Of a stretch of DNA of 64,000 nucleotides, positions 37,355 through 38,694 are shown in pieces (position 1 is the stretch's first letter; every line of letters begins with the position of its first letter). Source of the stretch: Escherichia coli (GTDB lineage: Bacteria; Pseudomonadota; Gammaproteobacteria; Enterobacterales; Enterobacteriaceae); the NCBI RefSeq assembly GCF_016026235.1, contig NZ_CP065613.1; one strand, 5' to 3'. The translations under genes and the position numbers were made by a program. The notes below the pieces were generated by a model. That model saw only the letters and a program-made list of their open reading frames with translations, was not told where the DNA came from and did no database searches.

Positions 37355-38694
37355 ATGGCGACACAATCCAGTCCTGTTATTACTGATATGAAAGTCATTC
37401 CGGTCGCCGGACATGACAGCATGTTGCTCAATATTGGTGGTGCGCATAACGCATACTTCACCCGCAATATCGTGGTACTCACCGATAACGCCGGGCATAC
37501 CGGCATTGGTGAAGCGCCGGGCGGAGAGGTGATTTATCAAACACTGGTCGATGCTATTCCGATGGTTCTGGGCCAGGAAGTTGCGCGACTGAATAAAGTG
37601 GTCCAGCAGGTGCATAAAGGTAATCAGGCAGCCGATTTTGATACCTTCGGCAAAGGTGCCTGGACTTTTGAATTGCGCGTTAATGCCGTGGCGGCGCTGG
37701 AAGCCGCCTTGCTTGACCTGCTAGGTAAGGCGTTGAATGTTCCGGTCTGCGAACTGTTAGGGTCAGGCAAGCAACGCGATGCTATTACCGTCCTCGGTTA
37801 TCTGTTTTATATCGGTGATCGGACCAAAACCGATCTTCCTTATCTGGAAAATACGCTGGGCAACCATGAGTGGTATCAGTTGCGGCATCAGAAAGCGATG
37901 AACAGCGAAGCCGTTGTGCGTCTGGCGGAAGCCTCACAGGATCGCTATGGCTTTAAAGATTTCAAACTTAAGGGCGGGGTGTTACCTGGCGAGCAAGAAA
38001 TCGACACTGTTCGTGCATTGAAGAAAAGCTTCCCGGATGCGCGGATTACCGTTGATCCCAACGGTGCCTGGCTGCTTGATGAAGCCATTTCTTTGTGCAA
38101 AGGGCTGAATGATGTTCTTACTTATGCCGAAGATCCATGCGGCGCAGAACAGGGCTTCTCCGGACGTGAAGTGATGGCGGAGTTTCGGCGGGCGACCGGC
38201 TTGCCCGTCGCGACTAACATGATCGCCACCAACTGGCGCGAAATGGGCCATGCGGTGATGCTCAATGCGGTAGATATTCCACTTGCCGATCCGCACTTCT
38301 GGACGCTTTCCGGTGCAGTCCGCGTGGCGCAGCTTTGCGACGACTGGGGGCTGACCTGGGGCTGCCATTCTAATAACCATTTCGATATCTCTCTGGCGAT
38401 GTTTACCCATGTGGGCGCGGCGGCACCGGGTAATCCTACCGCTATCGATACCCACTGGATTTGGCAGGAGGGCGATTGTCGCCTGACCCAAAATCCGCTG
38501 GAGATTAAAAACGGAAAAATTGCCGTTCCTGATGCGCCGGTCTGGGCGTGGAACTGGACTGGGAACAGGTACAAAAGGCACATGAGGCCTATAAACGTCT
38601 GCCTGGCGGTGCGCGTAACGACGCAGGTCCGATGCAGTACCTGATCCCCGGCTGGACCTTTGACCGTAAACGTCCCGTTTTCGGCCGTCATTGA
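37355..38694 (+). pseudogene. gudX: Glucarate dehydratase-related protein GudX, apparent frameshift near the 3' end
   Basis: Frame from ATG 37355 matches a GudD paralog for ~395 aa, then shifts at about 38538-38541 (gccgGtctgg); the +1 frame continues with the expected C-terminus ...[51 protein letters not shown] to the TGA at 38692-38694. Confidence 0.7.

Follow-up and report, generated by a model that had tools for sequence, protein, structure and literature searches.

A one-base deletion near the 3′ end of gudX in the Escherichia coli gudPXD operon as a probable inherited pseudogene allele

The gudPXD operon and the missing base

We analyzed a stretch of 64 000 nt from the Escherichia coli contig NZ_CP065613.1 (assembly GCF_016026235.1), hereafter called the window, with regard to the gudPXD operon encoded on its plus strand. 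The first gene of this operon is gudP (36001–37353), coding for the glucarate/galactarate transporter and identified from the list of open reading frames together with the annotated gudP of relatives. It was intact with a 450-aa product, and comparison with FDAARGOS_943 gave neither synonymous nor nonsynonymous differences, the two proteins being identical. In another relative, HCP4S3_I4, gudP is longer by one base, with an additional A at position 2926 of the aligned stretch (L002), corresponding to window position 37282, and is listed as 'frameshifted' in RefSeq; this insertion is either a separate mutation of the operon or the result of faulty assembly of HCP4S3_I4. Last in the operon is gudD (38715–40055), the gene for the bona fide glucarate dehydratase, having an intact open reading frame of 446 aa and a Shine–Dalgarno sequence of its own.

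The gene with the frameshift is gudX, a paralog of gudD, located between these two genes. Its native in-frame part (37355–38539) begins with an ATG at 37355 and comprises codons 1–395, as judged by translation, by alignment and by a match of residues 5–395 to the TIGR03247 profile. The site of the deletion (38537–38538) reads CC in the window and CCC in all intact relatives, as seen in the alignments, whereby codon 395 changes from CCC to CCG and the frame is shifted from there on. An out-of-frame tail (38540–38644) follows, made up of 34 unrelated codons and a TGA at 38642–38644, with this stop lying 50 nt ahead of the normal one. The mutant GudX product accordingly has 429 aa, with 395 native residues followed by 34 unrelated residues in place of native residues 396–446 (51 aa). 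The native 3′ remnant of the gene (38539–38694, 51 codons and a TGA at 38692–38694) is now found in the −1 frame and outside the GudX product; the GTG-initiated part of this remnant (38548–38694) was listed as an open reading frame of 48 aa, encoding a GudD-like C-terminus.

The alignment of gudX with its relatives, which the first-pass annotation had proposed as a check and which was performed here with three E. coli genomes, gave one single 1-base gap over the gudX stretch and otherwise full agreement with the two closest genomes. The relatives read GATGCGCCCGGTCTGG where the window reads GATGCGCCGGTCTGG, one C of the CCC run being gone; at the site itself the deletion form is GCGCCGGTC and the intact form GCGCCCGGTC. 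Apart from the gap, the nucleotides of gudX were those of the intact gudX of FDAARGOS_943 and HCP4S3_I4. The change consequently shows what is expected of a frameshift, namely a length difference from intact orthologues not divisible by three, a tail read out of frame and a stop codon at a new position. As it is read directly from the sequence and does not depend on statistics, a chance effect need not be considered. Putting one base back restored a gudX open reading frame of 446 aa ending at 38694, and insertion of either C or G at the site gave the same peptide, A-P-G-L-G.

The first-pass annotation, prepared from the window alone, agreed well with most of these results. It had seen the gudX frame leave the conserved frame near 38538, which is where both the translation and the alignment with relatives put the departure, and it was right in describing gudX as a paralog of gudD, in predicting a repaired length of 446 aa with an end at 38694, and in reading the native C-terminus in another frame, located here from 38539 to the TGA at 38692–38694. 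Its proposal of a 1-bp deletion also held, but not the identity of the lost base, which it took to be a G; since the relatives read CCC, a missing G was ruled out and the lost base is a C. The unrelated tail, finally, had been given as 39 residues and was found to be 34, with the 429-aa product sharing a prefix of 395 residues with the intact protein.

Distribution and inheritance of the deletion

A megablast search using gudX matched 5418 of 5426 complete RefSeq E. coli genomes, and each record among the matches listed was one base longer than the query. Using an 81-nt probe across the site, the deletion was found in none of the 5381 matching complete RefSeq E. coli genomes, the best identity being 98.8%, which corresponds to a single gap. 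An intact version of this gudX allele occurs in the sister genomes FDAARGOS_943 and HCP4S3_I4 and represents the immediate ancestral state, and the repaired 446-aa GudX sequence is present exactly in public data. A 34-mer across the deletion, GTTCCTGATGCGCCGGTCTGGGCGTGGAACTGGA, gave 0 exact matches in a contig collection having one genome per species, a composition that makes this result uninformative.

The exact 429-aa product, on the other hand, was encoded on at least 21 public contigs, independently assembled and derived from both NCBI and Logan sources. The carriers include GCA_000805835.1 (JTCO01000003.1), GCA_012752895.1 and the Logan assemblies SRR13627086 and SRR13627083, with one contig being larger than 1 Mb. 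GenBank also has this product under no fewer than four different protein accessions, part of which are labelled Escherichia coli O124. Carrier contigs compared with the window over 5.8–7.3 kb had 0, 1, 2 and 5 SNPs, and one of them (L009) had the ancestral base at three sites that are derived in the window, yet carried the gudX deletion. Because of these ancestral bases and the SNP differences among carriers, we conclude that the contigs come from distinct isolates having the deletion in common by descent.

These data also settled the choice, left by the first-pass annotation, between a pseudogene allele and a base-call error. A base-call or assembly error, with the true genome having CCC and an intact 446-aa gudX, could be suspected since the site is a short homopolymer and since the deletion was lacking from all the matching complete genomes as well as from the intact sister genomes. 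However, a run of three bases is not a typical error hotspot, and the product recurred on the independently assembled contigs, which comprise an Illumina MiSeq draft as well as Logan assemblies from SRA data and derive from isolates differing by SNPs. Moreover, comparison with the nearest complete genome, FDAARGOS_943, over 55 kb gave approximately 32 SNPs but no more than two single-base indels, the one outside gudX being located in the tRNA-Met repeat region, and because of this ratio we judge that the window assembly is not prone to indel errors. An error is thus very improbable, the independent assemblies and the low indel content of the window ruling it out for practical purposes, and of the two options raised earlier it is the true allele that stands. 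With the frameshift reproduced in independent assemblies and in related isolates 0–5 SNPs apart, the gudX deletion is, as judged from these comparisons, a true mutation inherited within a clade.

Regarding the nature of that clade, JTCO01 is one of two EIEC drafts produced by Illumina MiSeq sequencing, with JTCO being strain 4608-58 (O143:H26, phylogroup E) and JTCN being strain M4163 (O124:H30, phylogroup A) (PMC4319576). The labels of the carriers conflict, with GenBank giving O124 for some of the proteins and the genome report giving O143:H26 for JTCO (PMC4319576); both candidate strains are EIEC. Either both serotypes occur in one clade, or the accession order was swapped somewhere. Because the serotype labels disagree, the exact clade identity of the carriers is uncertain, with EIEC applying to both of the candidate strains.

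Comparison of the whole window with its relatives gave additional observations outside the gud operon. On the minus strand at 10418–10715 there are three tandem tRNA-Met (CAT) genes, metZWV-like in arrangement. FDAARGOS_943 has two such copies, while HCP4S3_I4 and 2014C-3061 have three, the difference being one 111-bp unit, and this difference in copy number accounts for the apparent 1-bp indel at 10618 relative to FDAARGOS_943. The segment between eno and queE was variable: the stretch 51598–55138, with genes for a TPM-domain protein and a LemA-family protein, is found in the window and in FDAARGOS_943, and the collinear alignment of the window with HCP4S3_I4 and 2014C-3061, which are of the ygcG/yqcG type, ends at 51598. 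Collinearity with FDAARGOS_943 stops at 55138, with 55138–64000 being divergent. In FDAARGOS_943 an IS1 separates the LemA-family gene from queE; the window has none at this place and has an IS1 copy at 60480–61248 in the opposite orientation. An ISEc60-like element is contiguous in the window (approximately 56522–57820) and split by ISSso6/IS66 insertions in FDAARGOS_943, and a second ISEc60-like end begins at 63583 of the window. The differences over 55138–64000 are best read as IS-driven rearrangement typical of Shigella-like genomes. Downstream of queE, at 56263–56482, we noted a short remnant of a CRISPR array with four GAGTTCCCCGCGCCAGCGGGGATAAACCG repeats at 61-nt spacing, the spacers of which probably differ from those of FDAARGOS_943, because the matching stretch of that genome has 96.8% identity with gaps.

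The lost C-terminus and the predicted state of GudX

GudX and GudD have 63% identity over 443 aligned positions, and comparison of the tail that is lost from GudX with that of GudD gave 33 identities in 50 residues. The motifs PGLGVE.D, KAHE and GAR(D/N)DA of the lost segment recur in the solved homologues 3N6H, 4G8T and 1BQG from other genera, in which the G-W and K-(R/K)-P residues of the C-terminal segment are also kept. All of the close solved homologues (15/15) align out to residues 443–446. The best NCBIfam match of GudX is TIGR03247, to which the repaired protein scores 747.4 bits, the frameshifted product 667.5 and GudD 894.4, with a cutoff at 828.7; the match of the mutant protein ends at profile position 391 of 441. 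GudD of the window hence passes the equivalog cutoff and GudX falls below it even when intact, for which reason GudX should be regarded as a related paralog and not as an equivalog. The precomputed Pfam hits of the 429-aa product comprised both PF02746 and PF13378, for the N-terminal domain and the C-terminal barrel domain of the MR_MLE type.

The active-site residues of GlucD, which we take to be K205/K207, D235, E266, N289, D313, H339, N341, H368 and R422, are all kept in the repaired GudX, with the equivalent of R422 being R421, located within the lost tail. In the GlucD structures Arg422 presumably contacts the substrate. In the enolase superfamily, furthermore, the part of the chain that follows the barrel turns back onto the capping domain. 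Because 51 conserved C-terminal residues are lost, including the Arg421 equivalent, the truncated GudX is most likely misfolded or inactive and gudX would then be a pseudogene in the clade. Some residual activity of GudX or binding to GudD may nonetheless persist, as 395 of the 446 residues are still encoded, among them all of the catalytic residues listed above apart from the Arg421 equivalent. Intact GudX reportedly has no significant glucarate dehydratase activity in vivo, and we know of no reaction that has been assigned to it. Searching the literature for the gene under its names gudX and ygcY, and for the 'glucarate dehydratase-related protein', gave nothing on the function of GudX, and the specific allele described here seems to be undescribed.

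Possible decay of gudXD and its explanations

The glucarate pathway is made up of GudP, GudD, GarL, GarR and GarK (PMC3877842). Using FDAARGOS_943, HCP4S3_I4 and 2014C-3061 as comparators, differences were polarised over 51.6 kb (window 1–51598), which gave 17 derived SNPs and the gudX deletion for the window lineage. Coding changes on this lineage were 8 nonsynonymous, found in ptrA (Q to L, 1213), recB (A996S and G1163E), gcvA (L48F), fucR (D67A), truC (W20R) and gudD (M298I and P359L), and 4 synonymous, one each in fucI, truC, gudD and barA. A ratio of 8:4 is high for core genes and suggests weak purifying selection, as would fit a recent host-adapted lineage. Four of the 18 events, three of them protein-altering and one silent, fell within gudX and gudD, two genes that together account for 5.2% of the sequence compared; the binomial P of 0.012 was calculated post hoc and from small numbers.

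Both of the GudD substitutions are derived and lineage-specific, with M298I caused by G to A at 39608 and P359L by C to T at 39790, and the original residues are kept in GudX as well as in 3N6H, 4G8T and 1BQG, distant homologues of known structure. None of the 4569 complete E. coli genomes giving a match had P359L, and M298I together with P359L was common to all of the carrier contigs of the gudX deletion that were examined. These results hint that the whole gudXD module may be decaying in the clade, and not gudX alone. The frameshift itself should have a small effect on the expression of gudD, because gudD keeps its own Shine–Dalgarno sequence (AAGGA) and the untranslated gap in front of the gene only increases from 20 to 70 nt. 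For the same reasons, and with no terminator-like site found, a polar effect on gudD through a terminator was rejected.

Taken together, we consider it highly probable that the window carries a genuine, vertically inherited CCC to CC deletion in gudX, fixed in a small EIEC clade, and that it represents ordinary decay with gudX as a likely pseudogene. According to this explanation, one C would have been lost from the CCC run in the ancestor of the clade, a member of which gave rise to the window. Ribosomes then translate 395 native codons and 34 out-of-frame codons before reaching the stop, giving a GudX that lacks its last 51 residues and that is most likely misfolded or inactive, with gudX becoming a pseudogene of the clade. 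In the same operon gudP remains intact and gudD keeps its reading frame, but with two substitutions at conserved sites acquired on the same branch. The simplest reading would be relaxed purifying selection during reductive evolution of a host-adapted, Shigella-like lineage, having gudXD among its decaying units.

A bolder version of this explanation starts from the origin of the gudX frameshift and of both GudD substitutions on one short branch, and from the fact that GudX co-crystallizes with GudD (PDB 4GYP, a GlucD/GlucDRP complex). GudX and GudD might accordingly form one functional unit that was inactivated as a whole in the enteroinvasive clade, either by selection for pathoadaptive loss of glucarate catabolism or because the constraint on one partner was released once the other had been lost. 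We regard that idea as doubtful and offer it tentatively; if true, the natural set of alleles would provide a handle on the function of GudX.

Pathoadaptive loss, with inactivation of gudX and perhaps also gudD being positively selected in the invasive lineage, is the alternative that could draw on the clustering of branch events in gudXD and on the fixation of these changes in all carriers examined. We nevertheless find it unlikely, as the clustering was tested post hoc with small numbers and as the 8:4 ratio extends across unrelated genes, which is what relaxed selection alone predicts. In Salmonella, in addition, the use of glucarate contributes to virulence (PMC3877842), and this speaks against its loss being generally advantageous.

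It could also be asked whether the disrupted gene still functions, either through an active 429-aa product or through the separate 48-aa open reading frame complementing it. Such a split or truncated gene would agree with the position of the catalytic residues listed above, all of which except the Arg421 equivalent lie upstream of the shift, and with the presence of a native-frame GTG 9 nt past the deletion. However, the truncated product has its 34-residue unrelated tail in place of a conserved structural segment, and a peptide started at the GTG (38548) would begin at native residue 399 and thereby lack the conserved GLG at 396–398. The Shine–Dalgarno pairing in front of this GTG is weak (−3.2 kcal/mol, compared with −5.3 for gudD), and a scan of 38400–38800 revealed neither a promoter-like nor a terminator-like site. 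Ribosomes on the mutant frame furthermore pass over this GTG and terminate 94 nt further on, so that coupling of termination to reinitiation is unavailable. With a weak Shine–Dalgarno sequence, no promoter-like site and no geometry for reinitiation, separate translation of the 48-aa frame is unlikely, and we hold a functional split or truncated gene as a whole to be distinctly improbable.

Programmed −1 ribosomal frameshifting or transcriptional slippage giving full-length GudX has a negligible probability and was ruled out. A near-native GudX C-terminus would indeed result from a −1 shift at any point from 38533 to 38641 (the last stop in the native-tail frame being the TGA at 38530–38532), but 38533–38644 contains neither an X XXY YYZ slippery heptamer nor a homopolymer of five or more bases. 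None of the 5381 probe-matching complete genomes has gudX in two frames, all being single-frame, and with the frameshift absent from all close and distant relatives, it is a mutation of recent date as opposed to a signal for recoding that has been conserved.

With ordinary decay of gudX as the preferred explanation, some practical points can be made. The 429-aa protein found in GenBank as 'glucarate dehydratase' is mis-named, being the paralog GudX in frameshifted form, and should be given a pseudogene flag. The gudX deletion in combination with 39608A and 39790T in gudD makes a clean marker of one EIEC clade, absent from the complete RefSeq E. coli genomes searched. The window also offers a natural gudX knockout next to a near-isogenic and intact sister, FDAARGOS_943, ready for comparison. 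A specialist is unlikely to be surprised by the decay of gudX, which is one more case of a Shigella-like lineage in which a catabolic gene decays.

Several known systems can be compared with the gudX allele described here. The GudX of K-12 (also YgcY or GlucDRP; structures 4IL0 and 4GYP) is encoded by the same gene in the same gudP-gudX-gudD locus, and the repaired GudX of the window could be aligned over its full length with the chains of 4IL0 and 4GYP, from which it differs by 6 substitutions; the K-12 protein is, however, full length, whereas the window allele is one C short and has 34 unrelated residues instead of residues 396–446. GudD (GlucD; PDB 1EC7, of the enolase superfamily) resembles GudX at the level of identity given above, with the active-site residues listed above kept in the repaired GudX and with the same fold family. 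The enzyme in the published pathway is GudD (PMC3877842), while GudX scores below the TIGR03247 cutoff also in its intact form. The programmed −1 frameshifting of dnaX, of IS1 insAB′ and of IS3-family transposases is alike in that two overlapping frames jointly encode a full-length protein, but gudX has no slippery heptamer and its frame arrangement is unconserved, which places it outside that class. The nearest precedents are instead garD of EAEC 042, a strain in which this gene is broken up into two CDS and galactarate is no longer used (PMC2808357), and the lac operon of EIEC M4163, which is truncated by IS1. As in those cases, a sugar or sugar-acid catabolic gene that is near-universally intact elsewhere in E. 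coli has been disrupted in one pathogenic lineage, with the difference that here the paralog was hit and not the pathway enzyme, and the gudX frameshift is in that sense an ordinary pseudogene in a Shigella-like E. coli lineage.
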